A DNA stretch of 64,000 nucleotides from a virus (IMGVR_UViG_2921473944_000001:1-64000), one strand, 5' to 3'. Shown: positions 30,402 to 50,487, counted from the stretch's first letter. The notes: generated by a model not told the origin, from the sequence alone. Made by a program: numbers and translations.

Positions 30402-30674
30402 TCAAACAGCAACTTTAACACTTCGCTTAACTTTCTTGAAGATACTCAAAGGATTTACAGTAAGGATTTCGTCGATTGCTCTTTCCAGTTCAACTACTTT
30501 CTCTTTCTCAGTCATTCCATCAAAGTAATGAGAAACTCGATCTACATAACCACAACAATTGTAACCTTTTTCCATGTCGTAATCATACCAATTATCGAAG
30601 TCATCAATTGGATCGAAAGGATTGTCAATGGTTGTCAAAGCAATGTAAGTTTCTGTAATAGTTTCTTGTGGCAT
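30402..30674 (-). CDS. Conserved hypothetical protein
   Basis: 90 aa, 'LTTIDNPFDP.DDFDNWY.YD..KGY'; coupled to the RNAP gene. Confidence 0.7.
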   Translation of the reverse strand: MPQETITETYIALTTIDNPFDPIDDFDNWYDYDMEKGYNCCGYVDRVSHYFDGMTEKEKVVELERAIDEILTVNPLSIFKKVKRSVKVAV

Positions 30675-30675: not shown

Positions 30676-33600
30676 TTAGATCACTTCCTTTCCTTTAAGA
30701 TACTTACTGATTGTTGATGTAGAGAAGCCAGTCTTCTTTGCTATCTCTTCAAGTGTATAGTTTGATGCTGCTAATGCTTTGAATCTGGCAGCCTGTGCTT
30801 TACTTGGTGATGTTGTAGTTTTAGGCATAGCTCTCTGTCTTAACTTATCTATATCCGTATTATTAAGAATCTGGTCAAGTTTACTAGCACTAATAGCACC
30901 AGCCTGTATAGCCTCCCACTCTTTGTCTGTAATCTCTATGTTACGCTGTGATCGCTTAGCAGAACCTACTTCATTACGATATTTGGATATGGATTTCTGT
31001 CTGAGCTTACGAAGATCTTCTTTACTCATATTAGGATCGTTCTTCTGCTTCTCTTGAATCTCAGTATTAGCCCTGCGCATAGCCTCTCGCTCCTTAGGCT
31101 GGTTCTTCTTAGCCTCCTTGAGCTTAGTATCCAGTGATGTTACTTCAGTCTGGTACTGTTTACGCATAGCCTGGTTGTATGCTATATCTTTAGTGTTAAC
31201 TATTTCCATTCTGGCTTTGTTACCAAGTGCCTTCATATCATTAGCATACTCAGCATATACCAGTTCCATTTGATGCTTCTTAGGTGATACAAGAGACATT
31301 GCATCGTTTGTTTCAGCCATCTTTGTACTGACCTGATTACGCTGTTTAACATGGTACTGTATTTTACCCGTACTATCTGTAAAGGTTACTTCCCCAGTCT
31401 CTTTGTTAATATGCTGTACCGGGTAGTACTTCTTAGCAGCTACCTTATCCTTAGGATCATAAGAAATAATCTTACCGTCTTCCGTACGGATGTCCACCAT
31501 ACCAGTCTTCTTATTCTTTCCTTTGTCGGCATAGTACAATTTTTTAGGGTCCATAGTCTTCCATACTTTAGCACCGTCTGGTAGGTCTGGATTATAATCT
31601 TTTGTACCCGGAGCATTAATCTTATAACCGCCCTGTCGTTTAGCTACTGAATACTGTCCTTTAGCACTAGACAACAATGTTGAAGCTCCACCAATCTTGA
31701 TACTTCCGTCTGGCTGTATGCTCTGCTGGAATTCAGCTTTAAGAGCAGAGATGTTATTCTCTTTCTCACTAGCTTTATAATCAAGATGATGTTTCTGTGC
31801 ATCGATAACAACCATACTATGCCGTACGGCTCTAGCTATCTTTTCTTCACTGGCTCCGCCGAGTGTCATATCCGTAATAAGGTTAGAAATAACGCCCATC
31901 TGTTTCTGAGTATCTTTCATTATTGGATACTCATGACCATTGCGTGTATAATGTTCTACACCGTTAGAATCGACGGTTTTAGTTCCGCCATATTCAACTT
32001 TCGGATCAAATCCCTCAAGCCCTTTCAATGGACGTTTGTTTTTGATTTTTATTTTACCGCCTGCATCATTCGTAGGGATACACATTACTGTATCTCCGTC
32101 AAAATCTGCTCCAGATAACTGGTCTGCGATTTTATGATTGATACCTACAGCATCGATGCTTTCTCCTGAAATAATCTTCTGTCCAAGCTTATTCTTGTTG
32201 TTTACAGTAAGAATAGGAATCTCAAAGATACCTCCATGCGGGTAACGAATTAATGCTAGTTGTGTTCCTGTAGCATAGTTAGGTGCATAGATTTCGTTGT
32301 CTTTCAAACTATTAATAGGAATAATAACATGGTATCTCTGTCCCGGGAGAGCAGCTGCTTTCAAATGTACTGCTGCAGAATCACATCCGTCAGCAAACTT
32401 TTCAAGTAAGTGTTTCTTGATAGTAGGATTCTGAAGACTACAGATTTCATCGAACTCAGCGAGCTTGTCAGCTTTAGCAAGTCCTAACTGTTTCTTTGCC
32501 AGTGGCACTGCTTGTTTTGAAAGGAACTGTGATGGTAAAGCATTTGCCCATTCAGTCCAGTCACCCTCATCAGCTCTTTTATTAATGAGTCCGAGTTTCG
32601 GTTTACCAGTCTTCTTATCGGTATACCAATACTGTCCGCCCTGGTCCGCATCTTTAATTAATGAACCAAACGGATTATCCGGATCATCTTTGATCTTTTT
32701 AAGTACATCGTTTTGTGGAGTTCCGCGTTTCTTATTAGTATTGAACACAACGTCTACTCCGTCAGGCATATTATCAGAATATACAGCCATACCTTTAAGG
32801 TAGTGAGTACCATCGACCATGATACGAACCTGTGAATATTTAGAATCGCCTAATGATAAGTCCTGAACTCCTCTACGAAGTTCAATGATACCATCTTTCT
32901 CAATACCTTTAGTTCCATCACTGTCCGTATCCTCTGCATATCTGATCAGAAGTCTCTTAGAATCAAGACTTTCCGGATATGTAAATTTTCTGTGATATGT
33001 ATCGCCACCATCATTAGACTGGTAATCTGTAATAGTCTTTACTTTACTGTAATCGTAGATATCTGAGTTCTTTGTTCCAGGAAGACACAATACTTTTTGG
33101 TTTGTCTGTTGATTTGCATTTGTTGGCTGAGGAATACCACCACCATAAATAGGACAATCTTCAGCTTTCTGTAAATAATCAAGGGCTGTATCAAGTCGTG
33201 TTCTTGTAATACCGAGATCCTGTTCTACACCAGCACCAACGTCAATCATGCCTTTCTCTTTAAGCTGATCTCTAAGAAAGTTAACTGTCTCCATAGTCTG
33301 ATTCATGTTATCTTCTCTCGATGGTTCTAATAGCGATCTTACTGTCGATTCAGAAATACCCATTTTTCTACCAATTTCAGTAGCACCAAGACCATCAGCT
33401 TTTAAACTTTTAGCTGTCTGAACCTGATCCAGACGTACTTCATATTTTGCCCAGCTTACCTGTCTGCGGTATTCAGTTGATGTTAGCCCCATAGATTTAT
33501 AGATAGCTTTCTCGCCCGTGAACTTCTCTCCTGTTTCTGGATCAGTCCATGTAAATCCATCTTTCTTCATTTCTTTTACACGACCGAGGAAGTCACTGCC

Positions 33601-33816
33601 GTGTTGGTAAGGTGATTCCCCTGATCCATATGGGTATCGTCCGCTTCTTCTTGGCATACCATAATGCATAGCATCATTTTCGCTTTCAGCAATACCAAAA
33701 CATTCAGCAATCTCTTCCGCTACTTTATTGGTGTCCGAATGTCTTATTGGTTCAGAATTATCAATAGTATCGGCTAATCCATAGTACGACATTATTTCTT
33801 CTGCTATTGGGTTCAT
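30676..33816 (-). CDS. Single-subunit two-barrel (YonO-like) RNA polymerase with terminal HTH domains
   Basis: Catalytic 'LSGADFDGD' (D571-D575; nt 32092-32106), upstream 'LIRYPH' (R524), 'YLKGM', 'QMGVISNLITDM'. HTH motifs near both ends. Confidence 0.8.
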   Translation of the reverse strand: MNPIAEEIMSYYGLADTIDNSEPIRHSDTNKVAEEIAECFGIAESENDAMHYGMPRRSGRYPYGSGESPYQHGSDFLGRVKEMKKDGFTWTDPETGEKFTGEKAIYKSMGLTSTEYRRQVSWAKYEVRLDQVQTAKSLKADGLGATEIGRKMGISESTVRSLLEPSREDNMNQTMETVNFLRDQLKEKGMIDVGAGVEQDLGITRTRLDTALDYLQKAEDCPIYGGGIPQPTNANQQTNQKVLCLPGTKNSDIYDYSKVKTITDYQSNDGGDTYHRKFTYPESLDSKRLLIRYAEDTDSDGTKGIEKDGIIELRRGVQDLSLGDSKYSQVRIMVDGTHYLKGMAVYSDNMPDGVDVVFNTNKKRGTPQNDVLKKIKDDPDNPFGSLIKDADQGGQYWYTDKKTGKPKLGLINKRADEGDWTEWANALPSQFLSKQAVPLAKKQLGLAKADKLAEFDEICSLQNPTIKKHLLEKFADGCDSAAVHLKAAALPGQRYHVIIPINSLKDNEIYAPNYATGTQLALIRYPHGGIFEIPILTVNNKNKLGQKIISGESIDAVGINHKIADQLSGADFDGDTVMCIPTNDAGGKIKIKNKRPLKGLEGFDPKVEYGGTKTVDSNGVEHYTRNGHEYPIMKDTQKQMGVISNLITDMTLGGASEEKIARAVRHSMVVIDAQKHHLDYKASEKENNISALKAEFQQSIQPDGSIKIGGASTLLSSAKGQYSVAKRQGGYKINAPGTKDYNPDLPDGAKVWKTMDPKKLYYADKGKNKKTGMVDIRTEDGKIISYDPKDKVAAKKYYPVQHINKETGEVTFTDSTGKIQYHVKQRNQVSTKMAETNDAMSLVSPKKHQMELVYAEYANDMKALGNKARMEIVNTKDIAYNQAMRKQYQTEVTSLDTKLKEAKKNQPKEREAMRRANTEIQEKQKNDPNMSKEDLRKLRQKSISKYRNEVGSAKRSQRNIEITDKEWEAIQAGAISASKLDQILNNTDIDKLRQRAMPKTTTSPSKAQAARFKALAASNYTLEEIAKKTGFSTSTISKYLKGKEVI

Positions 33817-33818: not shown

Positions 33819-34448
33819 TTACATACCCTCCTCATGAATTCTTTCCATAGTTCTACAATGTTGAATAATACAATCCATCACTGGTAAAATGTCATCAGCT
33901 GTTGGTTCGTCATGAATAATTTCATCATTCTGATAGATACATAATTCAACATCAATATCTCCTGGTTTTACTTTATACTCCAAACAGAAAAGAGCAGCAT
34001 ATGCCAAAAGTTGTTCCATTTTTGCAGGTGCTGTGCCGGTTTTTAAATCGTGTATTCTCAAGAAATTATTTCTAAAAGAAATAGCATCAGCTGTTCCATA
34101 ACAATATGGTGAATAATATAAAATCTGTTCAGGAGTAAGTTTGAACCCTACACCGTCATTTACATAGTTCCTAAAGTTACCATAGATACGTTCCATGTCG
34201 ATTACATTTCTTGGGATACCGTCGCTCAGTAAATGAGATAATACTGTAAGGTCGTCATTTTTCTTAAGCTTTAGCCCATTTCTGATAAGTGTTTCAGCAA
34301 GCTCATGTAATGATGTCCCCATAGCCTGTGCGTAGCTACTTACATATTTCTGGTAAAGCTGCTCATCCGAATATCTAAGCCAGTGAGGTTGACTAGGTGA
34401 TAACGTAGCGTGTTTACCGCGTAAGTCATAATGCTTTTCAAATATCAA
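33819..34448 (-). CDS. PD-(D/E)xK (Cas4-like) exonuclease
   Basis: 'YGTADAI...IHDLKTG...QLLAYA' RecB/Cas4-type motifs. Likely TTG start at 34448 after AAGGAGG. Confidence 0.8.
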   Translation of the reverse strand: MIFEKHYDLRGKHATLSPSQPHWLRYSDEQLYQKYVSSYAQAMGTSLHELAETLIRNGLKLKKNDDLTVLSHLLSDGIPRNVIDMERIYGNFRNYVNDGVGFKLTPEQILYYSPYCYGTADAISFRNNFLRIHDLKTGTAPAKMEQLLAYAALFCLEYKVKPGDIDVELCIYQNDEIIHDEPTADDILPVMDCIIQHCRTMERIHEEGM

Positions 34449-34461
34449 TGTAGTGTCCTCC

Positions 34462-34752
34462 TTATGTATTGAAATGGTTTTGAAGTTCTGCCATAACTTC
34501 ATCTTCATTTTCCGGAAATATAAATGCTGCGTAAGACATCTGATTCATCTTATCTACGTAGTAATCTTGATTTGGCTGATGACTAGCTTTTGCACTTTTC
34601 TTAACTTCTAGTGCAGCCCAAGTATTCTCGTAAAATATGGTCAGATCCGGAATGCCCTGCAGATATGTTGGATCATTTTTCAGTACAATGCATCCTGGAA
34701 ATTCATCTTTAATTCTCCGGATAAGTTTAGACTGAAATTTAGATTCTAACAT
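34462..34752 (-). CDS. VRR-NUC domain nuclease
   Basis: 'LESKFQ...GIPDLT...ALEVK...Q' motif. Confidence 0.85.
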   Translation of the reverse strand: MLESKFQSKLIRRIKDEFPGCIVLKNDPTYLQGIPDLTIFYENTWAALEVKKSAKASHQPNQDYYVDKMNQMSYAAFIFPENEDEVMAELQNHFNT

Positions 34753-34773
34753 ACAACCACCCTTTCTTATTGA

Positions 34774-34845
34774 TGGACCTTATAGGAATCGAACCTATTA
34801 CGTTTCGCTTATGAGGCGACTGTTCTACCAATGAACTAAAGGTCC
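34774..34845 (-). tRNA. tRNA with CAT anticodon, probably tRNA-Ile2 (lysidine-modified); no encoded CCA
   Basis: GGACCTT/AAGGTCC acceptor stem, GTTC/GAAC D-stem, CTCATAA loop, ATAGG-TTCGATT-CCTAT T-arm. G1-C72 excludes the initiator tRNA, and the acceptor stem matches Bacillota tRNA-Ile2. Confidence 0.85.
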
Positions 34846-34994
34846 ATAAATATAGACAAAAAGAAGGCGCAATGTTTGTCCGATTTGTTGTTGATTGACT
34901 GCTTGTTTTTTGCAAATCGGGAGACATTGTACCTTCTCTTCATAACAGGATAAGTTTTAGTGACGGGCATCGAGTGTTGTAAAAATAGTAGTTT

Positions 34995-39324: not shown

Positions 39325-39349
39325 CATAACAGCCTATGAATATGTCGCG
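39325..39349 (-). promoter_or_regulatory. Phage-specific promoter motif CGCGA-N15-TTATG
   Basis: Plus strand CATAA-N15-TCGCG; 38 nt upstream of ATG 39287. Confidence 0.75.
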
Positions 39350-39404
39350 AGAAACAAGAAGAGTCCTAGATTTTTCTAAGCCCCCTCTCAAATACTGTTA
39401 GATT

Positions 39405-39734
39405 TTAAATCCTTTTAAATATCCATTTTTTGGTTAATTCTTCCATCATACAGATATCGCCTTCACCATAAAAGAAATCAGGCACACGATGCATAAGCTG
39501 CAATGCTTTCTTAGTTGCCACTAAATCTCTTTTTAATACTGATAATTTATCATCAAGTAAATCAAGATCACCATTGATCCTTATAGTCGTCAATGCATCA
39601 TCTAATTTCATGCTTAATGAAAATTTACGCAGTGCCTTATATCGAATCTCTGCAACTCTAGCACGCTCAGCCATTACTAATTCGCGTTCTATCTCTAATT
39701 CCTTAATATGCTGTTCTAAATCTGTTCTTGTCAT
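39405..39734 (-). CDS. Hypothetical coiled-coil protein
   Basis: Own promoter motif and terminator. Confidence 0.6.
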   Translation of the reverse strand: MTRTDLEQHIKELEIERELVMAERARVAEIRYKALRKFSLSMKLDDALTTIRINGDLDLLDDKLSVLKRDLVATKKALQLMHRVPDFFYGEGDICMMEELTKKWIFKRI

Positions 39735-39772
39735 AATGTTACCTCTCTTTCTATTTTAGGGTTTTAATTTCT

Positions 39773-39797
39773 CATAACAGCCTAAGAAAGTATCGCG
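39773..39797 (-). promoter_or_regulatory. Phage-specific promoter motif
   Basis: CATAA-N15-TCGCG upstream of ATG 39734. Confidence 0.75.
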
Positions 39798-39847
39798 AAT
39801 AAAATAAGAGAGCATGTCTAAAATATAGATCAAGCCCTCTTGCTTCG

Positions 39848-40051
39848 TTACTTCTTAAATTTTTCCTTGACACGTTCCTGAATAGTTCCGTCCCATACCC
39901 ATAAATATAGACGATACCAAAACATCGCAAACGTTAGAATTATCTTAATCAGTATAATAATTGGCATTAATATCCATCTAATAATTCTAGCCGTTTGGTC
40001 CAATTTTGCATGATCCTCTCTATTTATAGTTTGTTTTTCGAATCTTTCCAT
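39848..40051 (-). CDS. Hypothetical membrane protein
   Basis: One TM helix; own promoter motif. Confidence 0.6.
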   Translation of the reverse strand: MERFEKQTINREDHAKLDQTARIIRWILMPIIILIKIILTFAMFWYRLYLWVWDGTIQERVKEKFKK

Positions 40052-40085
40052 AACTGTTTCCTTTCAAATCTTAAAATATGTATTC

Positions 40086-40110
40086 CATAACAGCCCATGA
40101 AATAGTCGCG
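40086..40110 (-). promoter_or_regulatory. Phage-specific promoter motif
   Basis: CATAA-N15-TCGCG upstream of ATG 40051. Confidence 0.75.
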
Positions 40111-40118
40111 AGAAACAA

Positions 40119-40367
40119 TCATACAAGTTTTCTGCCGCAGTTCGGACAATATTTAATCGGAATATCAACACGAGCAATACTACCAATACCAGCAAGAGCA
40201 TATAAGTCAGCCTGCAAAATAGGTTCTCTAGCAGTGTCTGTCTCAGTAATATATAATCGCAACCCCAATGCATCGGGAGTATCACCAATACCAATGAAAG
40301 CACCACCGATATCATTAGTCATATCAGGCTTACCATCAATAGTTTCAACTTTACAAAATTCACACAT
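40119..40367 (-). CDS. Zn-binding hypothetical protein
   Basis: MCEFC...IKYCPNCGRKL. Confidence 0.65.
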   Translation of the reverse strand: MCEFCKVETIDGKPDMTNDIGGAFIGIGDTPDALGLRLYITETDTAREPILQADLYALAGIGSIARVDIPIKYCPNCGRKLV

Positions 40368-40467
40368 AATTAATACCTCCTTTAAAATATAGCGGTTCTA
40401 AAAATGAGACAAAAGAAGAGCCTAAGTCAATTAAGACCTAGGACTCCTACCGTGTTAACGATTATTT

Positions 40468-40662
40468 TTAATGCTTCTTTTTAGCAATATGACGGAATTT
40501 GAACTCAATCCCGATATTCATAACACTTGTCATGAATTTACAAGCATCAACGTGCTCCATGCCAAGAAGTTCTAACTTCTTAATACACTTCCCAGCCTCG
40601 AGCTGTAATTCTTGAAAACTCATTTCTCTTGCTTTTACGTCAGTAATTTCTTTCACTTCCAT
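40468..40662 (-). CDS. Hypothetical protein
   Basis: True start MEVKEI after AAGGAGG; the ORF-track extension is promoter sequence. Confidence 0.6.
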   Translation of the reverse strand: MEVKEITDVKAREMSFQELQLEAGKCIKKLELLGMEHVDACKFMTSVMNIGIEFKFRHIAKKKH

Positions 40663-40700
40663 TGTCAATTCCTCCTTATTGAAACGTTTGTTAATCTTTC

Positions 40701-40725
40701 TATAACAGCCCATGTAACATTCGCG
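40701..40725 (-). promoter_or_regulatory. Phage-specific promoter motif
   Basis: TATAA-N15-TCGCG upstream of ATG 40662. Confidence 0.75.
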
Positions 40726-40775
40726 AATAAAAAGAAGAGCCGTCGTATATTTCAACTAAGACTCCTCCATTCCCT

Positions 40776-41180
40776 TTACAGATAAGGTTTAATTTCTCTC
40801 AGATGATTTTGGATTTTTCCTATTTCGTCGAGCTCACTACATAAATCGGCATATCGTTTATCAAGATAGTCTAAATATTCATCCAATTCTTGCTGATCAC
40901 GAACCAAGTTTCTCTTACCTATAAGCATACGATAATCTGGATTTACGTTATTCAATGATGCTGCTGGTATCGCATAACAGAAATTATTTCCGTATAGTGT
41001 GCCAGGAATATCATTAAAATCCCATTCCTTCTTCGTCTCGTTTATAACCAGATAAGCCCTGATCTGTCCGGTGCTAATCCATGCTCTAATTGTCGATTCT
41101 CCGACTCCTAATAAATATGCAGCTTCTTCGATTGTGTAATAGTCTCTCATCATATTTTTACCTCTCTTTCTGAATATCAA
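40776..41180 (-). CDS. HTH (excisionase/MerR-like) DNA-binding protein
   Basis: 'YYTIEEAAYLLGVGESTIRAWISTGQIRA'. Confidence 0.7.
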   Translation of the reverse strand: MIFRKRGKNMMRDYYTIEEAAYLLGVGESTIRAWISTGQIRAYLVINETKKEWDFNDIPGTLYGNNFCYAIPAASLNNVNPDYRMLIGKRNLVRDQQELDEYLDYLDKRYADLCSELDEIGKIQNHLREIKPYL

Positions 41181-41638
41181 TTTTTCTTTTCTGCATAAGA
41201 GAGCCTGTTTCTATCGCGAGGGATAAAAGGATCAGCATCGAAAAATAATAATGACATTGTATGATCACAATAAGCATAGTGACGTACCTCAAACGTAATA
41301 TACAGGTCATCTTTTAATAAAAAGTTTTGCTCAACACATGGTACACACCCGCACGTTCTAATGTGATGACAATGCAATCTAATTCTCTTATCATAGACTG
41401 GTATAACTCTTACACAATATGTGTCATCGTAACATCTATAAGCCGGATAATTAAGTTTCTTAAACACTTCATGCTGTTCCTTATCAATTTTAGCCATATA
41501 ATGATAAAATACTCTATCACCAACAATTCGCTCAGATAGACGATGCTTTGTGATATACGCTTTCATTGTAATTTCTTCACTATTTATAAATTTCATAGTA
41601 TTCATTCCCATACCATACACTCCTTTTAACTTAAACAT
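41177..41638 (-). CDS. Hypothetical protein
   Basis: 153-aa ORF. Confidence 0.55.
   Translation of the reverse strand: MFKLKGVYGMGMNTMKFINSEEITMKAYITKHRLSERIVGDRVFYHYMAKIDKEQHEVFKKLNYPAYRCYDDTYCVRVIPVYDKRIRLHCHHIRTCGCVPCVEQNFLLKDDLYITFEVRHYAYCDHTMSLLFFDADPFIPRDRNRLSYAEKKN
41194..41218 (-). promoter_or_regulatory. Phage-specific promoter motif embedded in the 3' end of the upstream CDS
   Basis: CATAA-N15-TCGCG. Confidence 0.65.
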
Positions 41639-41701
41639 ACAATAAAAAAGAGCCTAAGCCATTTCTGACCTAGACCCTTCTGAATCTGAAAATATCGATG
41701 T

Positions 41702-41773
41702 TTACTTGTTCTTACCACCACGAGTTTCTCTTACTGTCTTTTCACCGTCATAATATACGATTGTGATTTTCAT
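41702..41773 (-). CDS. 23-aa micropeptide MKITIVYYDGEKTVRETRGGKNK
   Basis: Strong RBS GGAGGTGAG, upstream TTGATT...TGaTAGAAT promoter (~41805-41834) and downstream terminator (41640-41682). Confidence 0.55.
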   Translation of the reverse strand: MKITIVYYDGEKTVRETRGGKNK

Positions 41774-41888
41774 ACGTCTCACCTCCATTTAAGTGAAACC
41801 AATTCTATCACAAATATAAATTAAATCAAGTATTGACTTATAAGAACTAGAAAAACAAAAGGGGCAAGTATATCACCCCTCTGAGAAA

Positions 41889-42182
41889 TTACTGATGAAT
41901 ATAAATCTCATAAACATCAAGATTATCATCATTGTAAATATCAACTTCGAATTTCATACCCATACATTCAAATGGATAGTCTTCATATAGTTCCGCGTCA
42001 TTAGGTAGTAATAACGTTGTAGATCCTCCATCAGGAAAACCTATAGTTATACCCCAATTAAGCGGACTTTTAATAAAGTACACTTGAAGCATGAACAGTT
42101 CACCTGTATTGTCGACCTCTAATCCAATATTTACGAAATCACTTTTACGACTCACCTGAATTCCTCTTATATTTTTGTTCAT
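41889..42182 (-). CDS. Hypothetical protein
   Basis: RBS and own promoter motif. Confidence 0.6.
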   Translation of the reverse strand: MNKNIRGIQVSRKSDFVNIGLEVDNTGELFMLQVYFIKSPLNWGITIGFPDGGSTTLLLPNDAELYEDYPFECMGMKFEVDIYNDDNLDVYEIYIHQ

Positions 42183-42205
42183 ATTGAACCCTCCTTTGTT
42201 TTTTT

Positions 42206-42230
42206 CATAACATAGTAGGATTCTATCGCG
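42206..42230 (-). promoter_or_regulatory. Phage-specific promoter motif
   Basis: CATAA-N15-TCGCG upstream of ATG 42182. Confidence 0.75.
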
Positions 42231-42444
42231 ATTTCTAGTAACCTCTGTACTTTAATTATTCAGCCAGTCCTCGAGCATCTTTATAGCAGCATTTTCATAC
42301 ATCTTACAAGTCTCGTTTACTAACTGTTTATTAAACATATCTTTGGTTTTACACTGACCATCTGGATAATCTTCAGGATTGGCTACTTCTATCTCACATC
42401 TCTCGAAAAATGGACAGGTAAGGCATTCATGAAGTCTTCTAAGT

Positions 42445-42831
42445 TCATTCCTGCTCAGGTTCATGTAAATCACCCCTCTGTTCACCCGGATTCAAATATT
42501 CAATATTATCTCCAAAATCAGTAACAGTAATTCCCCAGATCTTAGTCGGAGCGAAAAACTGCTGCAATAGAATCTGAGCCTCATCAACGAGAAGACCTTT
42601 ACGCATAATGTCAGTATTCATAAAAGGTTTATTCTGCTTCATACGGAAGATCTCTTCAACTGAAAACGGTTCCGGAATATCATATCCCATGTCATTTGCC
42701 TGCTTACGAATATAATCAGCCATGCATCGGCTAGGAGCTACGATATAAGCTCCAGTCTCTGCCGACTTCTTAATCAATGTTGCAGTTTTACCTGAACCTC
42801 TAGCCCCTACATAAATATCCATCCTATTCAT
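42445..42831 (-). CDS. Small P-loop NTPase
   Basis: Walker A 'GARGSGKT' and Walker B 'LLVDEAQ'. Confidence 0.7.
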   Translation of the reverse strand: MNRMDIYVGARGSGKTATLIKKSAETGAYIVAPSRCMADYIRKQANDMGYDIPEPFSVEEIFRMKQNKPFMNTDIMRKGLLVDEAQILLQQFFAPTKIWGITVTDFGDNIEYLNPGEQRGDLHEPEQE

Positions 42832-42836
42832 AATAA

Positions 42837-43175
42837 TTACTCCTTTTCTTTATCTCTTAATGTACAAACCAATTCATATATCATCTCTTTAGCTGTAAGG
42901 TCTGTACGAGCTTTCATAACGCCCTTGAAATAATACTCTACGAAAATATCAATAGCTCTTTCTCGATTATCCTCACGAAGCCAAACCATACCATTAAATA
43001 CATCGCCCTCATCGCCACTACACAGATACTTATGTCCATTATGATATGATTTGAAATATGCACGCCCACGAGTACAGTTTGATATAAGACCATATACGTC
43101 ATCAATGTATTCAAGCGTACCTTTCGTAGACTCTAATTTACCTCCAAATATCCAGTATAACCATACTTCATCCAT
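42837..43175 (-). CDS. Hypothetical protein (paralog of 45680..46018)
   Basis: Shared 'G.(V/L)(F/Y)N..VW......AIDIF' motif. Confidence 0.6.
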   Translation of the reverse strand: MDEVWLYWIFGGKLESTKGTLEYIDDVYGLISNCTRGRAYFKSYHNGHKYLCSGDEGDVFNGMVWLREDNRERAIDIFVEYYFKGVMKARTDLTAKEMIYELVCTLRDKEKE

Positions 43176-43177
43176 AT

Positions 43178-43435
43178 CTAACTCTCCTGTGTAGCCCTTA
43201 ATACATGTCCTACATTATCGACATAACACTCGTGCCAAATTGTGATAGGTTTTTCATCACCATCTGTAAGGTCAATCCAAGCTGCCAACACTGTATGATT
43301 AAATCGCATAGTTTCTACAGCTAACAACGCCGAGTCCAACGATAAACAACAGTCGTATGAACTTTCTCGATAAGCAAATCTATTAAAATTATCCTGAATA
43401 ATATAGTTAGTCCAATATCTTTTCATTCTTACCAC
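43178..43435 (-). CDS. Hypothetical protein
   Basis: 85-aa ORF in an operon. Confidence 0.5.
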   Translation of the reverse strand: MVRMKRYWTNYIIQDNFNRFAYRESSYDCCLSLDSALLAVETMRFNHTVLAAWIDLTDGDEKPITIWHECYVDNVGHVLRATQES

Positions 43436-43496
43436 CCTTTCTAAAAGAAAAAAGAGAAGCTAATTAAAGCCTCTCTTAATATTGTTCATCAATCTG

Positions 43497-44606
43497 TTAT
43501 AAACTACCACTTGCGTTTGACAACCATGGGTCAGCACTCGGCAGCTTTGCCGTATATTTTTTCACAAACTCATCTGGTGCAATACGAACCGGACTCTCAA
43601 CAGTATCAACATTAGCTGCATATGTTTCCGACTCGACATCCATCATATCAAATAACCAATCTGTAATAATATCCATAGCCCATGAAATATCAAATGTGCT
43701 ACCAGCAGCTTTTGGATGACCACCGCCTCCGTAATTATGAGCAATTTCAGTACCAAGATTAATATTGTCTCGAATTGTACGATAGCTAACCCTGCCACGT
43801 GAAATATCAATCATAGCAATGTAGGCAAACTCAGGATGTATCTCACACAGACGATTACCGAGCTCACTAAAATACCGTTCAGCAAATATAACACCATATG
43901 TATTACCCCACTGGTCTGTTTTAACTGTAATCTGTCTCTCCTTTTGCTCTACATAAATATCAATGTCTTTCTGTTTCTGTTCAAGTAAGAGTGTATCAGT
44001 TTCTGAGAACCACTCGTCTTGATGTAATGGCGAAGTACCAAACATGATACGCTTCATAGCCAGCTCAATGAATTTATCTCTACCATAAATATGAAAGAGA
44101 TCGTTCATCTGCTTACTAACAAGTCCGTCTTCTCCTAATTCTTTCCAACGCCAAGTATCATAGTCTCGAACTATAGACACGAAACGAGATATTTTATTTT
44201 GAGTTGTCTGATCGTACGTAAGACTTAAACTATTACTCACATATAAATAGAACAATTCAGTACCACTAGTCTTTACAGCATCTAAATATTCATATACAGT
44301 ACACCAAAAGTAGTTATCCAATCTAAGAGCAGTTCCATGATGGTCAAATAAACGTACTGTTCTCTCAACCTTATCTAAACAGTCAATCATACTAGCTACC
44401 TGATCGGAGACCGAAATATCAGTAATGAAAATCGAATCGTAACTCCTGTACAGATCTTCGTTTTCCATGAATGCTTCTACTTTATCATCCACATCGTCAT
44501 AGTTACAATACTCAACATCAACATTCTCTTTACCAAATGCCAAATACGCTAAAACAGCACATCCGATACCGTCAAGATCGATATGTGTGAATATTTTAAT
44601 TTTCAT
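43497..44606 (-). CDS. DHH/DHHA1 phosphoesterase
   Basis: 'THIDLDG', 'ITD', 'DHH', 'DYDTW', 'GGGHPKAAG'. Confidence 0.9.
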   Translation of the reverse strand: MKIKIFTHIDLDGIGCAVLAYLAFGKENVDVEYCNYDDVDDKVEAFMENEDLYRSYDSIFITDISVSDQVASMIDCLDKVERTVRLFDHHGTALRLDNYFWCTVYEYLDAVKTSGTELFYLYVSNSLSLTYDQTTQNKISRFVSIVRDYDTWRWKELGEDGLVSKQMNDLFHIYGRDKFIELAMKRIMFGTSPLHQDEWFSETDTLLLEQKQKDIDIYVEQKERQITVKTDQWGNTYGVIFAERYFSELGNRLCEIHPEFAYIAMIDISRGRVSYRTIRDNINLGTEIAHNYGGGGHPKAAGSTFDISWAMDIITDWLFDMMDVESETYAANVDTVESPVRIAPDEFVKKYTAKLPSADPWLSNASGSL

Positions 44607-44621
44607 AGATTTAAATCTCCT

Positions 44622-44993
44622 TTATTTGTAATATAAGTCACGCTCTTCCAAAGTGTTAAAGTGTGGAGGATTATCGTAACTAGTACTGCCACCCTCGTTT
44701 TTCGTCTTTTTAGGTCTACCTACTTTTTTCTTAGCTGGTTTTGAATCAGCATATGACTCCCGAATATCAGAAACCTCTCTTTGTAATGCCTTGACCGTAT
44801 TGTTAAAATTCTCCCGAATATCTTCATAAGACATCTCCATCCATTCTTTTCTCTGAGCACACTCTTCAGGACTTCCGCATCTCGCATACTGTCTATACTC
44901 AAATAGTAAATTCTCCAATGCCTTCTTTCTTTTTACATCAGACAGACTACTACAAAGTTCTTCTACAATTTCTAATTCTTTTATTGTTAACAT
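44622..44993 (-). CDS. Hypothetical protein with GRP motif
   Basis: 'KKKVGRPKK'. Confidence 0.55.
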   Translation of the reverse strand: MLTIKELEIVEELCSSLSDVKRKKALENLLFEYRQYARCGSPEECAQRKEWMEMSYEDIRENFNNTVKALQREVSDIRESYADSKPAKKKVGRPKKTKNEGGSTSYDNPPHFNTLEERDLYYK

Positions 44994-45014
44994 AATATTA
45001 ATTCTCCTTTTATC

Positions 45015-45524
45015 TTACTTTTTTGATATATATAGATGAATATCTGAGTCGTTTCCAACAGTTTTGAACTTATATACTCTGGATTGTAAAATATCGTCTG
45101 ATAATGCTTCCATAGCAACAATAGCTCTTGCTGAGAAACGACCACATGGCTCATAGACATGAATTGTGATATTCTGCCTCTCATCGAGAATTTTCAAAAC
45201 GTCAATAAGTTTAAAACGACCATTCTCCATCACCTTTTCGTTTTTCTCAATATATTCCTCTACATTTGCAAACACAGCTAATGGGTCTAAATCAGTTTTA
45301 GAATAATACCATAAAACATTATAATAAGGGATTCCTTCCTCAGCCGCACATTTAATCTTCCTGATAGCCGTGCCATCGTCATCAAATAGTTTTAAATAAC
45401 TAGTACCAGGCTCGTAAAAATCACCGTCAAAATATGCCTCTCTATGATATAGAATAGCTTTGTATTCCTTAACTGTAGTTTTGCCACTTCTAACATAAGC
45501 CCATACACTTCCCATACATTTCAT
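45015..45524 (-). CDS. Hypothetical two-module protein
   Basis: N-half resembles the 42837/45680 family; C-half resembles the 47533/47748 family. Confidence 0.55.
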   Translation of the reverse strand: MKCMGSVWAYVRSGKTTVKEYKAILYHREAYFDGDFYEPGTSYLKLFDDDGTAIRKIKCAAEEGIPYYNVLWYYSKTDLDPLAVFANVEEYIEKNEKVMENGRFKLIDVLKILDERQNITIHVYEPCGRFSARAIVAMEALSDDILQSRVYKFKTVGNDSDIHLYISKK

Positions 45525-45679
45525 AATATTAATACCTCCTTACATTTCATAATATATACACCAACATGTAACATATCGTAAGAATCAAAATCATCCAGTA
45601 CTCCCAGTTGAGAATACCATACCCCATATGATTTAATATAAGACCTTCACCTAACATAATCAGTGCGCTAATAATAAGT

Positions 45680-46018
45680 CTAAGAAACTGTCCCATTACT
45701 AATACTCTCCTCTATCAACTGCATTTTCAAAAGGTTCGTAAAAGTAGTCTTTCTTCTCTGCAGTGCTTCTTCCAACTTATTAATCTTCTCATTCTCATCT
45801 TCCATGAAAATATCAATAGCTTTAACCTTGTCTGCTTTTGGGAACCACACATTATGGTTATACAGAACACCTGGCTTCGGATCGCAAGTCAGTACACGAA
45901 GAATCTTTCCATCGTCATTAATAATTCTAAATATAGCCTTATATTTACCCCGTACCTGTAAATCCCCTTCATACTCATAGAGCTTTCCTCTGTAAAAATT
46001 GTATAAATATACTTTCAT
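45680..46018 (-). CDS. Hypothetical protein
   Basis: Paralog of 42837..43175. Confidence 0.6.
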   Translation of the reverse strand: MKVYLYNFYRGKLYEYEGDLQVRGKYKAIFRIINDDGKILRVLTCDPKPGVLYNHNVWFPKADKVKAIDIFMEDENEKINKLEEALQRRKTTFTNLLKMQLIEESISNGTVS

Positions 46019-46163
46019 AAATATCGATCCTCCTCTATATTCTTACACCGCTTCCTGGTACGTTTTGTGAAATACATATGATGTTTCATTCGACAATCTT
46101 TCTTATCCGCGCCATTATGTAAATACGAGTTTCTTGCTTTTCTCTTTTTATTTTCACTTGCCA

Positions 46164-46601
46164 TTAATCATATTCCTCAAGTTCCTCTGCTTTGAATTTA
46201 GACACCGCATCATATATAAGTTTCTTAATAGCTTCATGATTGTCAATAGAAAACCTATCTGGTAATGAAACAGTCCCGTGATATATCTTTTCATCGAAAT
46301 TGCTATAAGATTTAACATTTGTTCTAACCAGGCGACTACTATATATAATTTCACGTGACGTTACACCGATACTATCACGCATACTGAATCTAACACCACG
46401 ATTTATTTTAACATGCGCTAATTCTTTACCATTACAAATAGGATATTCTTCAATACGCATTTCTTCCAAGTCAGCCCCTTGATGCAAACAAACATAACGT
46501 TCAGCGTCTTCCCGATTTATACATATCGTTTCAATATGATAGTCTGAATACTCACCAGCAGTCACTACATATATTTTATCTAACTTATTCATACTGTACA
46601 C
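46164..46601 (-). CDS. Hypothetical protein (DUF7336-like 'IYVVT.GEYSDYHI')
   Basis: N-terminal motif common in phage proteins. Confidence 0.55.
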   Translation of the reverse strand: MYSMNKLDKIYVVTAGEYSDYHIETICINREDAERYVCLHQGADLEEMRIEEYPICNGKELAHVKINRGVRFSMRDSIGVTSREIIYSSRLVRTNVKSYSNFDEKIYHGTVSLPDRFSIDNHEAIKKLIYDAVSKFKAEELEEYD

Positions 46602-47558
46602 TCACTTTCACACCAGACATGTCTTTAATAGCTTCATCGATTATCAATTTAGCTGCTTCCTTCTGACAATCGTTTGATAGAAAATCGAGATTGACATTGA
46701 TATACTCTTTTCTGCAAGTTAAAATTATGCTGATTATTTTGTACATCTCATTTTTCTGATTTACACTAAACGTATCGCATATCATCGGTATAGTCATAAT
46801 ACTCTCCTTTTCTCACGCTTCCTCTAATTCGCCAAATATTTTTTCATAAGCATTAATGTCATATTTAAGTAACATACATTTAGCTGTTTCTTCGTCAATA
46901 ACAAGAGCATCACCTAGTTTAAATACAATAAGCCAGCGTCCCTTTATTGATTTATATAATTTTACATTCACTGAGCGTTCGAATGTACTTAAAGCATACA
47001 TACACTTAGTAGATATACAATCCATTTTATCAGTATCGTATTTCAGACCATTATACACATAAACCATAATAAAATTACTCCTCTACAATATCTTCTATAG
47101 TGATAATACGTGACTGCAGAATATCACTCAAACTTTCATCATGCTCAACTTTATGTTTAGCTACCATGTAATTGCAATAAAATGACGGAGAATGCATAAT
47201 CCCAAGCAACACAAGAAACTTATACAGCTTACTATTAACACACTTCTTATTCCAATGTTTCCATACTTTTAATCTTAATAACATTGTCTTACCCTTTTCT
47301 TTCTACGATCTCCTTATATGCAGTAACATCCCAGTTATTACCATCTCCTGACCAATCTAACAACCATCGAATTTCGTCGATAGTCAATTTCAGAACATAT
47401 TGTTTGATAAATATATGCATAGGTAAATCATTCTGAAAATACCGATAGCGACATCTATATAAAACATCATCTCTAAGATTCGCCATATTTAATTCTGATG
47501 TACTAGGTCTACCACGTTTGCTTTCCATAAACTCATTTCTCCTCTCTAGTAGATACAA
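46585..47558 (-). CDS. Four small hypothetical genes (46585..46797, 46813..47067, 47075..47284, 47289..47558)
   Basis: Consecutive minus-strand ORFs with RBSs; no recognisable domains except a KRGRP motif in the last. Confidence 0.5.
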
Positions 47559-47957
47559 TCACACTAAGTTTACAGTCATAATTACTCCCACGGACCTCCT
47601 TAACTTCAAGACTCCGAAAATCTAAAGCAAGATATTTGAGAGCATATAGTGGTCTAATAGTACCAATAGGATTAAGACGATCGTTGAGATATAAATCTAC
47701 CTCTATATCTGGTCCTGCTACTATCAAAACATCATTAAGCGTCATAATTATTTCTCCTCTCCGTTTATTACCACGACAATAGCGTTAGACGCTTCCGAAG
47801 CTTTGATATTAAGTACCTTAGCCTCAATCGTGTATATATTAAAACATTTAAGTGCATATAAAGGTTTTATAGCACAAATGTAATGTGAATCATCATTCTC
47901 GTACAACTCTATAGTGACCTCAGGATCTGTCACCGTTAAAACATTATCAAGCGTCAT
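47533..47957 (-). CDS. Tandem paralog pair (47533..47745 and 47748..47957)
   Basis: MTLNDVL.V..P...DLY...I.P.YALK vs MTLDNVL.V..P...ELY...IKP.YALK; identical RBS context. Confidence 0.7.
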
Positions 47958-48032
47958 AATTATTTCTCCTCCTTATACTTTCATTACAAAAATAAAAGAG
48001 CCTAAGTCAATCAAGACCTAAGCCCCATCGGT

Positions 48033-48413
48033 TTAGATTTCGTCCAAGATAATTCCCTGTGGTTTGAAGTCTAACAAATATACAAAACTCTCGCCCTGAC
48101 GATATATCGTATAAATATCACCTACAGTCATTCCTTCTTTATAAATCCAACCCACTAACTGTCCATTCTTTGTTCTCGAAAAACCCAGCATATCGTAAGC
48201 TTCGTTCAAGAATAAATATCCTCTAGTCGCCAACAAATCATACATATATTTTCGTTGGTTATTTAAAGTAAACCTATTCATGACGTTGTCTTTCGTCCAT
48301 AACTGGTTATTCTCGTCAAAAAATCTACTATAGTTGTCCTCCTCAAGCTGAATGACTACACTATCAGTACCAACGTTATCGCCAGACATAAGCTCTCTCA
48401 ATTCATTTTTCAT
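48033..48413 (-). CDS. DUF6353-like protein (C-terminal part)
   Basis: 'GYLFLNEAYDMLGF.RT..GQLVGW.Y...LLDF'. Confidence 0.55.
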   Translation of the reverse strand: MKNELRELMSGDNVGTDSVVIQLEEDNYSRFFDENNQLWTKDNVMNRFTLNNQRKYMYDLLATRGYLFLNEAYDMLGFSRTKNGQLVGWIYKEGMTVGDIYTIYRQGESFVYLLDFKPQGIILDEI

Positions 48414-48449
48414 AATTCATTACTCCTTTCGTGACTACAAATCTTTTAC

Positions 48450-48474
48450 CATAACAGAATATGATTTATTCGCG
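48450..48474 (-). promoter_or_regulatory. Phage-specific promoter motif
   Basis: CATAA-N15-TCGCG upstream of ATG 48413. Confidence 0.75.
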
Positions 48475-48663
48475 TCTACCGCGTACGGTTCTTTTATACT
48501 CTTTGCTCATTAGATCAACAAAAATATCAGAGCGAGTACGCCCTGTCTTAGCACTCAACTCTGATAACATAGCTGCCTCTTCATCATTTAACCGAATCCG
48601 AATACCTTTTCGCTTAGCGTTCACTTTTGGCGGTCTACCTCGCTTTTTAATCAAAACTATCAA
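48466..48663 (-). CDS. Ribbon-helix-helix protein with GRP motif
   Basis: 'KRGRPPK...IRIRLNDEE..ML.ELS..TGRTRSDI'. Confidence 0.7.
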   Translation of the reverse strand: MIVLIKKRGRPPKVNAKRKGIRIRLNDEEAAMLSELSAKTGRTRSDIFVDLMSKEYKRTVRGRRE

Positions 48664-49372
48664 CTCTCCTTATCTTCTTCTATTCTACGTCCAGCCCCAT
48701 AGCAATCCTGTAAGTATCTTCTATATACAGCTGCCATATCATCACGAGCTCGTCTCATAGCTTCAGCCATTTGCTTATCATAATAGGTATTCTTCATTGT
48801 CATTTTGTTATGATAGAAATCTATAACAACAGCATCATCCATAAGTGGGTAACTCTCTCCTATAAATATTTCCATATCGCCATAACCAGCATTCGATATC
48901 TGAGCAAGTAAATTACGCAATGAATCAACCGTAAATTGTTTTCCCATAAAGATCAGTCCTCCTCTTCTCTGCATACTGGACTATCAATATCCCTTTTCTT
49001 GTAGACGTCACCTGTGGAGTTAACCCCATAGTTAGTTTCTTCATGACAACGCTTTAAGAACTCTGCTTTTTCATCAGTATTAAGGTCGTAGATTCGATTA
49101 AGAAAGTCATCTGTAGGCATATCGATACGCTTGTGTATAAACATATAATTTTGAAGCCTATCCTCACGAATAAGCGGCTCGTTGGATATATGTAAGAAAT
49201 CAAAAAGTTCATGTACGCAATCGTTGCACAGATCGAAACATCTACCTGTAATGTTCCTATATGCACTATCTAGTTTAATATAGTCGACGGTCTCACCTTC
49301 ATAGCGCAACGATGTGTTTTTATTCCTAATATAATATTTACCACATCTATCGCATTTCTTAGCATCACTCAT
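48660..49372 (-). CDS. Two hypothetical genes (48660..48974; 48953..49372 with CDRC/LCNDC Zn motif)
   Basis: Consecutive ORFs in an operon. Confidence 0.55.
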
Positions 49373-49418
49373 AATTCTTTACCTCCTAAAATTAATACAA
49401 AAGAAAAGAGACCCTAAA

Positions 49419-49640
49419 TTAGAGTCTCACCTCGCGCATCTGCTTAGCGATTTTTAATTTGCGTCGCCTTTCTTTTTCGATTTTTACCTGAATCTGATAT
49501 ACTTTATATGATACAAACATAATGACAAATTCCATGACCATAATATCTTTCGGTACATCAATGCCAAATAAGCATAATATAAGTCCTAATATCATAAGCA
49601 CCATCATTGCCATTGTTGTTATATCCATTAATTTTTTCAT
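49419..49640 (-). CDS. Hypothetical membrane protein
   Basis: Start MKKLMD after GGAGG; two hydrophobic segments. Confidence 0.6.
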   Translation of the reverse strand: MKKLMDITTMAMMVLMILGLILCLFGIDVPKDIMVMEFVIMFVSYKVYQIQVKIEKERRRKLKIAKQMREVRL

Positions 49641-49663
49641 AATCAATACCTCCTTAATCTTTC

Positions 49664-49688
49664 TATAACAGCCCAAGAAAGATTCGCG
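49664..49688 (-). promoter_or_regulatory. Phage-specific promoter motif
   Basis: TATAA-N15-TCGCG upstream of ATG 49640. Confidence 0.75.
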
Positions 49689-49758
49689 AATTAATGTGCC
49701 TATTTTCAGCTTTCGCATTTACTGTATACACAATAAATATAAAAAGAAGAGCCTAACA

Positions 49759-49965
49759 TTAAGTCAAGCTCATCATTTTCTCAAGCTGAGGAGCGATTTG
49801 TTTATATAACCCTTCGCTCATCAAATATTCGTTACACTCGGTACCAAATACATCACTCCGCCTACACATTACACTAGTCGGATTAACACCAACACTCTGT
49901 AAAATATTTATAAAGCCCTGCTCTGTTTTTGTACCAGGTTTCACTATAAATTTTCTGATCCCCAT
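49759..49965 (-). CDS. Hypothetical protein
   Basis: Start MGIRKF after GGAGG. Confidence 0.6.
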   Translation of the reverse strand: MGIRKFIVKPGTKTEQGFINILQSVGVNPTSVMCRRSDVFGTECNEYLMSEGLYKQIAPQLEKMMSLT

Positions 49966-49991
49966 AAATATCAATCCTCCTTTTACTTTTC

Positions 49992-50016
49992 TATAAGAGG
50001 ACCAGAATATATCGCG
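49992..50016 (-). promoter_or_regulatory. Phage-specific promoter motif
   Basis: TATAA-N15-TCGCG upstream of ATG 49965. Confidence 0.75.
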
Positions 50017-50478: not shown

Positions 50479-50487
50479 CACCACTAA

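Follow-up and report, generated by a model that had tools for sequence, protein, structure and literature searches.

A single-chain RNA polymerase (RNAP) built on two barrels is very probably the product of P0001, an open reading frame (ORF) of 1046 amino acids at positions 30676-33816, minus strand, of the viral sequence IMGVR_UViG_2921473944_000001:1-64000. The window, meaning the whole analysed stretch of 64,000 nucleotides (nt), corresponds to the first 64 kb of an IMG/VR record of 79,953 bp that is labelled 'provirus'. P0001 would act on DNA templates, and the identity of the enzyme can be called secure to the extent that computation allows. Two further features bear on its role. A three-block promoter recurs through the early region of this genome and in related phages of Actinobacteria and Firmicutes, and the N-terminus of the protein carries a short peptide that resembles one on proteins of the head module. 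Together they suggest a virion-delivered, promoter-specific early RNA polymerase, a composite reading for which we see about as much reason for belief as for doubt.

The catalytic core

P0001 starts at an ATG and ends at a stop codon within the stated range, and minus is the sole open strand. SGADFDGD occupies residues 569-575, and R524-Y-P526 lies 45 residues N-terminal of the first Asp of DFDGD. The AlphaFold2 model was built on an alignment of 65 diverse homologues that are 42-59% identical to the query. It has a predicted local distance difference test score (pLDDT) of 86.5 and a predicted template modelling score (pTM) of 0.78. Searched against the PDB with Foldseek, the model matches QDE-1 (E 1e-9, prob 1.0) and P74-26 gp62 and P23-45-type gp64 (4e-7 to 2e-6). 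Plant RDR2, P23-45 gp96, and then the largest subunits of Pol IV and Pol II appear at lower ranks. VIA-align gives Z 15.2 for RDR2 (root-mean-square deviation 4.2, 353 residues), 14.7 for QDE-1 (model residues 281-873), 13.2 for P74-26 gp62, 11.6 for gp64 and ~10.8 for Rpb1 (model residues ~482-852). Because the model matches RDR2, QDE-1, gp62/gp64 and Rpb1, residues 280-871 are assigned to a two-barrel polymerase core. The gene and the parts of this core, including both predicted double-psi beta-barrels (DPBBs), are as follows.

30676..33816, minus strand: predicted two-barrel RNA polymerase gene P0001, 1046 amino acids, single chain (ORF; phrog_4291 E=0; AlphaFold2 pLDDT 86.5; fold matches)
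31204..32979, minus strand: predicted two-barrel catalytic core, residues 280-871 (VIA-align and Foldseek)
32569..32952, minus strand: beta-like barrel DPBB-B, residues ~289-416, with D308, Q329-x-R331, K341, D355, K362 and K373 (strand pattern of the model, conservation)
32071..32337, minus strand: beta-prime-like barrel DPBB-A, residues ~494-582, with R524-x-P526 (32239-32247) and DFDGD (32092-32106) (model, conservation, hhalign with the YonO motifs)

Conservation falls on the residues expected at an active site of this kind. R524, P526, D571, D573, G574, D575, K341, D355 and K373 are invariant in the 65-member alignment, and D308, D335 and K362 are nearly so. Q329 and R331 are invariant or close to it, and the Q329-x-R331 motif resembles Q736-x-R738 of QDE-1 (PMC9508822). 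The first-pass annotation, made from the sequence alone, had read a GADFDGD motif with an upstream R-x-P in a 1046-amino-acid protein, and both the translation and the invariance of these residues bear this out. The AlphaFold and Foldseek comparison that it proposed recovers the double-psi barrels on which it had staked the assignment, with QDE-1, RDR2, gp62/gp64 and Rpb1 matched over residues 280-871. It had also pointed to candidate Lys motifs in the second barrel. Candidate lysines are present in the beta-like barrel, K341 and K373 being invariant and K362 nearly so, and their equivalence to known residues, drawn from alignment offsets only, is tentative. The reference residues of the beta-like barrel are D837, K979 and K987 in Rpb2 and D709, Q736, R738, K743 and K767 in QDE-1.

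Family and naming

P0001 belongs to phrog_4291, the phage-1706 family, which is labelled 'RNA-dependent RNA polymerase' in PHROGs (E=0, 1133 bits). Full-length homologues were found by tblastn in 250 phage records at ~36-42% identity, and their hosts are Arthrobacter, Gordonia, Streptomyces, Rhodococcus, Curtobacterium, Lactococcus (phages 1706 and P162) and Faecalibacterium. In BLASTP, P0001 and orf75 of Lactococcus phage 1706 are colinear and 36% identical over residues 27-1037 (E 5e-170). The homologous gene sits at the right genome end, after the exonuclease, in the order exonuclease, RNAP and small gene, followed by the terminase module. Homologues in gut prophages are 69-99% identical to P0001. 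In a large protein collection the family forms at least 8000 clusters at 90% identity, many of which stem from contigs, as long as 1.9 Mb, of Blautia and Mediterraneibacter, and in a representative library 877 clusters at 50% identity match with E<1e-30. Given the phrog_4291 match and these 877 clusters, DFDGD is not a chance motif. Megablast against phages returned no match.

The first-pass annotation had warned that this polymerase is easily mistaken for a helix-turn-helix (HTH) protein, and the public names of its relatives prove the point. They include 'ArsR family transcriptional regulator', 'CsgD family regulator' and 'helix-turn-helix domain-containing protein', and phage records alternate between 'RdRP' (RNA-dependent RNA polymerase) and 'HTH DNA-binding protein'. 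Pfam finds in P0001 HTH models alone, at ~138-163 and ~1014-1044, with no RdRP or RNAP model and no match to PF05183 at E<=1. NCBIfam likewise gives weak HTH-type matches alone. The regulator names in public sources arise because Pfam and NCBIfam detect nothing except the HTHs. Sequence and profile searches of the PDB with P0001 also returned only HTH domains.

The prediction of this family as an RNA polymerase is already known (2010; 2019/2021), and P0001 is a further member of it. Ruprich-Robert and Thuriaux listed the phage 1706 protein in silico among five distantly related 'YonO-like' families (PMC2919709). Koert et al. reported its DxDGD motif, an HHpred match to the Pfam RdRP family (probability 95.7%) and HTH domains at both ends, and described the gene as a signature of the actinophage-Firmicutes phage group (bioRxiv 10.1101/842583). 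Neither the promoter nor the tag link described below is mentioned there, both the cross-phylum promoter and the tag link are absent from the papers checked, and promoters go unmentioned in the two papers checked on these phages.

DNA-binding domains at both ends

The core of P0001 is flanked by predicted DNA-binding domains.

33037..33600, minus strand: N-terminal DNA-binding module, residues ~73-260, two HTH units and a winged helix (Pfam, domain model, VIA)
30685..30801, minus strand: C-terminal HTH, residues ~1006-1044 (Pfam HTH_38, HTH_3, HTH_31)

At residues 138-163, Pfam HTH_23 and Sigma70_r4 both match; Sigma70_r4 reaches 28.1 bits (cut-off 24.1), and HTH_23 scores above it. A separate model of residues 70-285 (pLDDT 93) contains two three-helix HTH units and a winged helix. 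In VIA comparisons, residues 127-172 give Z 6-7 alike to the HTHs of LsrR, DeoR, ECF sigma-4, LuxR, resolvases and transposases, and residues 172-259 give Z 6-7 to winged helices of the TFIIIC, TFIIE and MarR types. Nothing rose above Z 8 in the fold search with the N-terminal domain, and no Foldseek match reached E<=0.001. The C-terminus matches phrog_664 at 933-1045 and, weakly, the sigma70-ECF model TIGR02937 at 949-1041.

From these matches and the modelled folds, DNA binding by the end domains is well supported as a prediction. Specific kinship to sigma factors is not supported. No such relationship can be claimed because the end-domain matches are generic, at Z 6-7. The earlier suggestion of sigma-like promoter recognition thus stands in one part, the presence of HTHs at both ends, and lacks specific support in the other, since the folds are generic HTH and winged-helix ones.

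A three-block promoter in the early region

The window contains 13 copies of CGCGA-N12-CTnTwATr, where 0.01 are expected, and every match is on the minus (coding) strand. A candidate promoter set in the same genome had been proposed from the sequence, and this enrichment, together with its conservation in relatives, confirms that set. Seven further sites lie outside the window, in the 64-79 kb part of the record, for a total of 20. With a position weight matrix (PWM), these 20 sites score at least 27.9 and the background at most 5. All 20 are on the coding strand of the early region, from 39.3 to 78.7 kb. The related pattern CGCG-N16-TTAT occurs 20 times against 0.72 expected.

39325, 39773, 40086, 40701, 41194, 48450, 49664, 49992, 53894, 54255, 54529, 56911 and 59173 (span 39325..59197), minus strand: thirteen strong promoter elements (pattern and PWM)
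near 42233 and 53644, minus strand: weaker promoter copies
34937..34968, minus strand: weak variant of the promoter, CGTCA-N12-CTGTTATGA, preceded by a terminator and followed by tRNA-Met, exonuclease and RNAP (sequence; PWM 13.9)

Each of the 20 sites stands 20-45 nt before a ribosome-binding site, and many, where the flank was printed, come directly after the T-tract of a terminator. Between the two outer blocks lies a third, central one, wAC(a/t), with an invariant C. The full architecture is TCGC(G/A)A - N5-6 - wACA - N4 - yTnTwATGA at fixed spacing. Among the 19 seed sites, the position that corresponds to -11 of a sigma-A promoter varies (G 10, A 3, C 3, T 3), and the TCGC block is only 13 nt away from the TATAAT-like block. 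The geometry is therefore not that of a sigma-A -35/-10 promoter. A scan of 24-40 kb for sigma-70-type promoters and terminators gave nothing above shuffled sequence (48 sigma-70-type promoters found, 56.5 expected), and a PWM scan of the record found no strong promoter copy ahead of the late genes.

A compositional change coincides with the promoter-bearing region. Across 36000-64000, GC skew moves from ~-0.1, the value of the late and middle genes, to ~-0.3, and G+C falls to 33-37%. The change comes exactly at the start of the promoter-bearing early cassettes.

Conservation of the promoter in relatives

Elements built alike and in the same register are present in distant, polymerase-bearing relatives that infect hosts of different phyla; for the Lactococcus phages this applies to the core.

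Gordon (Arthrobacter): TCGCAAgaATTACAnnnnTTATAATGA, 8 copies, register TCGC-N15-TnTwATGA
Bing (Streptomyces, region 59% G+C): TCGCAwaTTTTACAnnnnCTATAATGA, 8 copies, register TCGC-N15-TnTwATGA
Gill (Gordonia): full pattern 9, core 11
ReqiPoco6 (Rhodococcus): full pattern 10, core 10
P162 (Lactococcus): TTTTACAyACCCTATAATGAAAGG, at least 9
1706 (Lactococcus): TTTTACA-N4-CTATAGTAGAAAG, 7
Blautia prophage (69% RNAP identity): 2 copies, one ahead of the tRNA-exonuclease-polymerase operon

The core TTTTACA-N4-CTATAaTG is common to Lactococcus phages P162 and 1706 and the Blautia prophage. In the four actinophages, the matches lie on the coding strand of the early regions, and reverse-strand matches number one in Bing and none otherwise. 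A reversed control pattern gave zero matches in the records searched with it, Gill and ReqiPoco6 included, and SPBc2, the phage that encodes YonO, gave zero matches to the promoter patterns. The element in phage 1706 was found by reading intergenic DNA; dyads enriched in that genome were considered as promoters and rejected, as they are coding periodicities. Enrichment of k-mers in the gut relative MT835495.1 turned up nothing, and a scan of viral contigs with the promoter pattern was uninformative, with six single unconvincing matches.

The upstream blocks are conserved across host phyla, which points to a reader encoded by the phage. The genes common to this phage group are head genes, replication genes and the RNAP-like protein (bioRxiv 10.1101/842583), and by that published comparison of gene content the polymerase is the only conserved DNA-binding or transcription candidate. 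We infer, with somewhat more conviction than doubt, that the polymerase itself reads the conserved promoter by direct recognition.

An N-terminal tag shared with head-module proteins

The first 70 residues of P0001 are disordered in the model, with pLDDT <50 for residues 39-69. A conserved segment lies within this region, and a similar one is found in four proteins whose genes lie between those for the connector and the terminase.

33601..33684, minus strand: N-terminal tag, residues ~45-72 (D-A-M-H-Y-G ... S-G-R-Y-P-Y-G-S-G ... P-Y-Q-H), disordered in the model and conserved in the family
25005-25262, 25318-26073, 26801-27868 and 27865-28434, minus strand: four DUF7211-tagged head-module proteins (Pfam DUF7211, 3e-9 to 6e-11)

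In P0001 the segment reads D-A-M-H-Y-G-M-P...S-G-R-Y-P-Y-G-S-G. Its G53, S58, G59, R60, G64 and G66 are invariant in the 65-member alignment and H51 is nearly so. The four DUF7211 proteins have N-termini of the form ...E-L-Y/L-H-H/Y-G-V-K-G-M-K-W-G, and L-x-H-Y-G is the part in common with the polymerase. The same pairing is seen in relatives. In Gordon, gp8-gp11 carry DxFLxHYGVKGMKWG and the polymerase has the N-terminus MTTQTDELFHYGTLRKSGRFPWGSG; in phage 1706, orf7 carries DILQHRGVIGMRWG and the polymerase DSLQHYGTKRHSGRYPWGSG. An hhalign comparison of polymerase N-termini with 18 DUF7211 tag sequences gave a probability of 85% and P 6.2e-6, against P 0.41 for the reversed control. A tag regular expression run over six frames of the genome matched the polymerase, the four DUF7211 proteins, one unrelated DHH site and nothing else.

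Depositors' annotation also touches on this link. In the phage 1706 record (EU081845.1), orf7 and the polymerase orthologue orf75 are both labelled 'structural protein'. For orf75 the label presumably rests on virion proteomics, and a note in the ReqiPoco6 record carries it over. RefSeq later renamed orf75 'RdRP'. Whether the polymerase travels in the virion is, on the tag and these labels, an even call.

A DUF7211-related match also occurs in the early region, where the 325-amino-acid protein at 50885-51862 (minus strand, phrog_20637) matches phrog_7021, a family that matches DUF7211-tagged proteins, over residues 158-218.

Proposed mechanism

P0001 would be a single chain in which two double-psi beta-barrels, a beta-like one and a beta-prime-like one with R524-x-P526 and the Mg-binding D571-F-D-G-D575, make up the active site. 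Each end would bear fused DNA-binding modules (HTH-HTH-winged helix N-terminally, HTH C-terminally), with the linear tag ahead of them. The polymerase would be synthesised late and loaded into the capsid through the 'L-x-H-Y-G...W-G' tag, in common with the DUF7211 cargo proteins encoded beside the terminase and portal genes. It would then be ejected together with the phage DNA. In the new host it would initiate without a host sigma factor at TCGC(G/A)A - N5-6 - wACA - N4 - yTnTwATGA. This promoter would head ~20 terminator-insulated early and middle transcription units between 39 and 79 kb, with a weak copy before the operon of the polymerase itself. Virion two-barrel RNAPs that transcribe early genes have precedents in P23-45 gp96 and crAss gp66, and N4 is also a precedent (PMC10770324).

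A wider form of the proposal is offered tentatively, with doubt slightly the stronger. In it, siphophages of Actinobacteria and Firmicutes would share a free-standing, capsid-tagged virion polymerase that alone recognises a near-constant three-block promoter through its HTH and winged-helix modules, which would make it a cross-phylum early-transcription cassette that does not depend on the host. The 'acidic-L-x-H-(Y/H)-G ... W-G' peptide would be a general signal for capsid loading, perhaps for protease cleavage, of ejected cargo.

Alternative explanations

Several observations weigh against a virion-delivered polymerase that reads the promoter by itself. Curtobacterium phage JoyLin (PQ868962.1) encodes a polymerase of ~40% identity and has no match to either promoter pattern; either its promoter has diverged or the association of promoter and polymerase does not extend to it. 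In the DNA covered, strict matches number just one or two in two nearer gut relatives. The strict pattern has one site in MT835495.1 (69% RNAP identity) and none in L005 (75%), where looser copies are visible by eye. The co-occurrence of promoter and RNAP could merely reflect common descent of the whole phage group, so that co-occurrence alone is no proof of direct recognition. The RNAP gene is located in the replication module, outside the head genes. Pfam DUF7211 (PF23847) has no match at E<=1 on residues 1-70 of P0001; because the Pfam model misses the segment and profile-profile comparison relates it, the tag of the polymerase is at best a diverged DUF7211 variant. The beta-like barrel residues may correspond to D709, Q736, R738, K743 and K767 of QDE-1 (PMC9508822), a mapping by offset. 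Literature searches, within the scope of their queries, returned no experimental work on any phrog_4291 member.

The strongest competing account is a polymerase of the YonO type that stays out of the virion. As the last early or middle gene, it would transcribe the late genes for structural proteins (30 kb to 1) from a promoter near cos, and the early promoters would be read by host sigma-A holoenzyme through the TATAAT-like block, with another factor on the upstream blocks that assists or gates it. The gene does lie directly upstream of the late genes in circular order, and these have no strong promoter copy ahead of them. Of the single-chain phage enzymes, YonO has been studied best, and it transcribes late genes (PMC5467207). 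The last of the three promoter blocks is moreover a perfect TATAAT in the actinophages and P162, usable by host sigma-A, and this, like the precedent of YonO, also counts against an early enzyme that needs no sigma factor. In the phage studied here, however, G predominates at the -11-equivalent base, a -35 at 16-18 nt is missing, and sigma-70-type promoters are not enriched. The upstream blocks are kept across host phyla, where no host factor is common, and both the structural label of the 1706 orthologue and the tag common with head-module proteins favour a virion enzyme. We regard the late-gene account as unlikely, with roughly the standing of a serious minority view.

A role as RNA-dependent RNA polymerase or replication primase, without any promoter-driven transcription, would follow from the 'RdRP' label in PHROGs and GenBank and from the location in the replication module. 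Its nearest folds are indeed the eukaryotic RdRPs QDE-1 and RDR2, with the Q-x-R motif of QDE-1 (PMC9508822), and exonuclease and helicase genes are adjacent. Yet QDE-1 accepts DNA templates too (PMC9508822), and YonO and gp64, of the same fold, are DNA-dependent (PMC5467207, PMC10770324). The phage has its own primase-polymerase (phrog_4210), P0001 has no Pfam RdRP match, and fused HTH modules of a double-stranded-DNA type together with a cognate-looking promoter set suit transcription. This explanation is very improbable.

Just as little room is left for a non-polymerising DNA-binding regulator or structural protein with a polymerase-like fold, whose HTHs would bind the conserved sites and activate or repress host RNAP, as the four HTH or winged-helix units and the public annotation as a regulator might suggest. 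All 65 aligned sequences keep the metal-binding Asp residues, R-x-P and several Lys, Gln and Arg residues of the barrels unchanged, the pattern expected from purifying selection on catalysis, and ~590 residues of conserved core would be superfluous for DNA binding alone.

Comparison with known polymerases

The closest known proteins are the 'YonO-like' ones of the phage 1706 type, which include 1706 orf75, a 'putative RNA polymerase' of Faecalibacterium phage Oengus and the 'HTH DNA-binding protein' of the actinophage supercluster. P0001 matches them full-length and colinearly, shares their DFDGD and RxP motifs, their HTHs at both ends and their synteny, and differs from them in no structural respect. 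YonO of SPbeta is, like P0001, a phage-encoded single polypeptide with two barrels and RxPH...DxDGD at the same spacing by hhalign. Sequence similarity between YonO and the P0001 family is not significant (hhalign E 0.23). As the catalytic motifs align at this E value, P0001 is placed in the YonO superfamily but in a separate family. YonO has no reported fused HTH modules and transcribes late genes from an undefined promoter (PMC5467207), and the promoter described here is absent from SPBc2.

P23-45 gp64 (non-virion), P23-45 gp96 (virion, fused to the tape measure) and gp66 of phi14:2, a crAss-like phage, are single-chain two-barrel RNAPs that use phage-specific promoters and transcribe pre-early or early genes, and virion delivery is documented for gp96 and gp66 (PMC10770324). 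Unlike gp96 and gp66, the putative virion form of P0001 would be free-standing, at ~117 kDa, with an N-terminal tag, rather than part of a tape-measure or giant cargo protein. It also differs from the RNAPs of Thermus and crAss phages in its HTH and winged-helix modules and in its promoter consensus. QDE-1 and RDR2 are the best structural matches, at Z ~15 over ~355 residues, and share the Q-x-R motif in the beta-like barrel. They are ~11-15% identical to P0001, and these eukaryotic enzymes act in silencing and have neither HTH ends nor the tag. Its fused DNA-binding modules and the capsid-type tag at the N-terminus make the family a distinct variant among the two-barrel phage enzymes that have been characterised.

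Single-chain two-barrel polymerases are minimal relatives of the cellular RNA polymerases, and only a handful have been studied (YonO, gp64, gp96, gp66 and QDE-1). The present family is large, with no fewer than 877 clusters at 50% identity, gut prophage copies in the thousands and ~250 cultured phages, and most members are publicly labelled as regulators. If the proposal is correct, it would supply a compact, sigma-independent polymerase with a defined promoter of ~30 bp and tractable hosts in Arthrobacter, Streptomyces, Gordonia and Lactococcus. It would also explain how these phages begin infection in very different hosts. A candidate capsid-targeting peptide and the correction of a widespread annotation error in gut metagenomes would follow as well.

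Genome setting and neighbouring genes

All genes in the record are on the minus strand. In transcription order, it begins with a long early region of small genes, from 79 to 36 kb, with strong GC skew, whose contents include the primase-polymerase (phrog_4210), a helicase and recombination genes. This is followed by an Xre-like regulator, an HNH endonuclease, tRNA-Met, a Cas4-like exonuclease, the RNAP ORF and an acidic protein of 90 amino acids. After the acidic gene come ~500 nt of non-coding DNA and then the late genes, in the order HNH endonuclease, connector, DUF7211 proteins, large terminase, portal, protease-capsid fusion and tail genes. The immediate neighbours of the RNAP gene are these.

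34772..34846, minus strand: tRNA-Met, head of the RNAP operon (ARAGORN)
33819..34508, minus strand: Cas4-like PD-(D/E)XK exonuclease, DUF2800, translationally coupled, upstream of RNAP (phrog_3953 5e-64; Pfam DUF2800 and PDDEXK_1; synteny kept in relatives)
30402..30674, minus strand: conserved acidic 90-amino-acid protein, phrog_4303, directly after the RNAP gene, a possible accessory factor

Small genes of the phrog_4303 type also lie directly 3' of RNAP in Gordon (gp89), Bing (gp87), P162 (P162_0082), 1706 (orf76), Gill (94), Poco6 (gp107) and JoyLin (85). The 90-amino-acid protein has no Pfam match. As a constant neighbour of the polymerase in Firmicutes and Actinobacteria phages, it may serve as accessory subunit, chaperone or inhibitor. 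A tRNA occupies the equivalent operon-leader position in gut relatives L005 and L006, and in Arthrobacter phage Gordon tRNA-like sequences come after promoter copies.

Repeats and other non-coding elements flank the operon. At 36180-36420 (minus strand), within a gap of 410 nt that lies upstream of the gene for the Xre-like HTH protein (35541-35969), there are five or six direct copies and one inverted copy of TTGTAAACATT(T/A)ATTC, which may be operators or an origin. Other repeats are found at the equivalent place in relatives, tttatgtaacacgataattca five times in L005 and atttttgtatagcagaaaat four times in L006. Between the RNAP operon and the late genes, at 30100-30200 (minus strand), lie a G/C-rich element (GGGGGTAGGGGGT...ACACCCCCTCCCTG...CGCG...) and a hairpin. 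The element is kept in L005 (13446-13727) and L006 (13340-13640), and is likely a cos or packaging site because the linear genomes of relatives end just past the RNAP operon. An inverted repeat, CCTTATAC...TTTCTTATAAGG, stands upstream of the first late genes at 29690-29760 (minus strand) and is present in L005 too (15756-15970). It is a candidate late regulatory hairpin.

No integrase was found among the ORFs scanned in the 79,953-bp record, and phage genes reach both of its ends. The lineage is probably temperate because close relatives reside on bacterial contigs of 0.3-1.9 Mb. Among the late genes, 19570-21507 (minus strand) encodes a protease-major capsid fusion of 645 amino acids (phrog_3270), and an unusual protease-capsid fusion of the same kind has been noted for Arthrobacter clusters AM and AU (PMC5513430).

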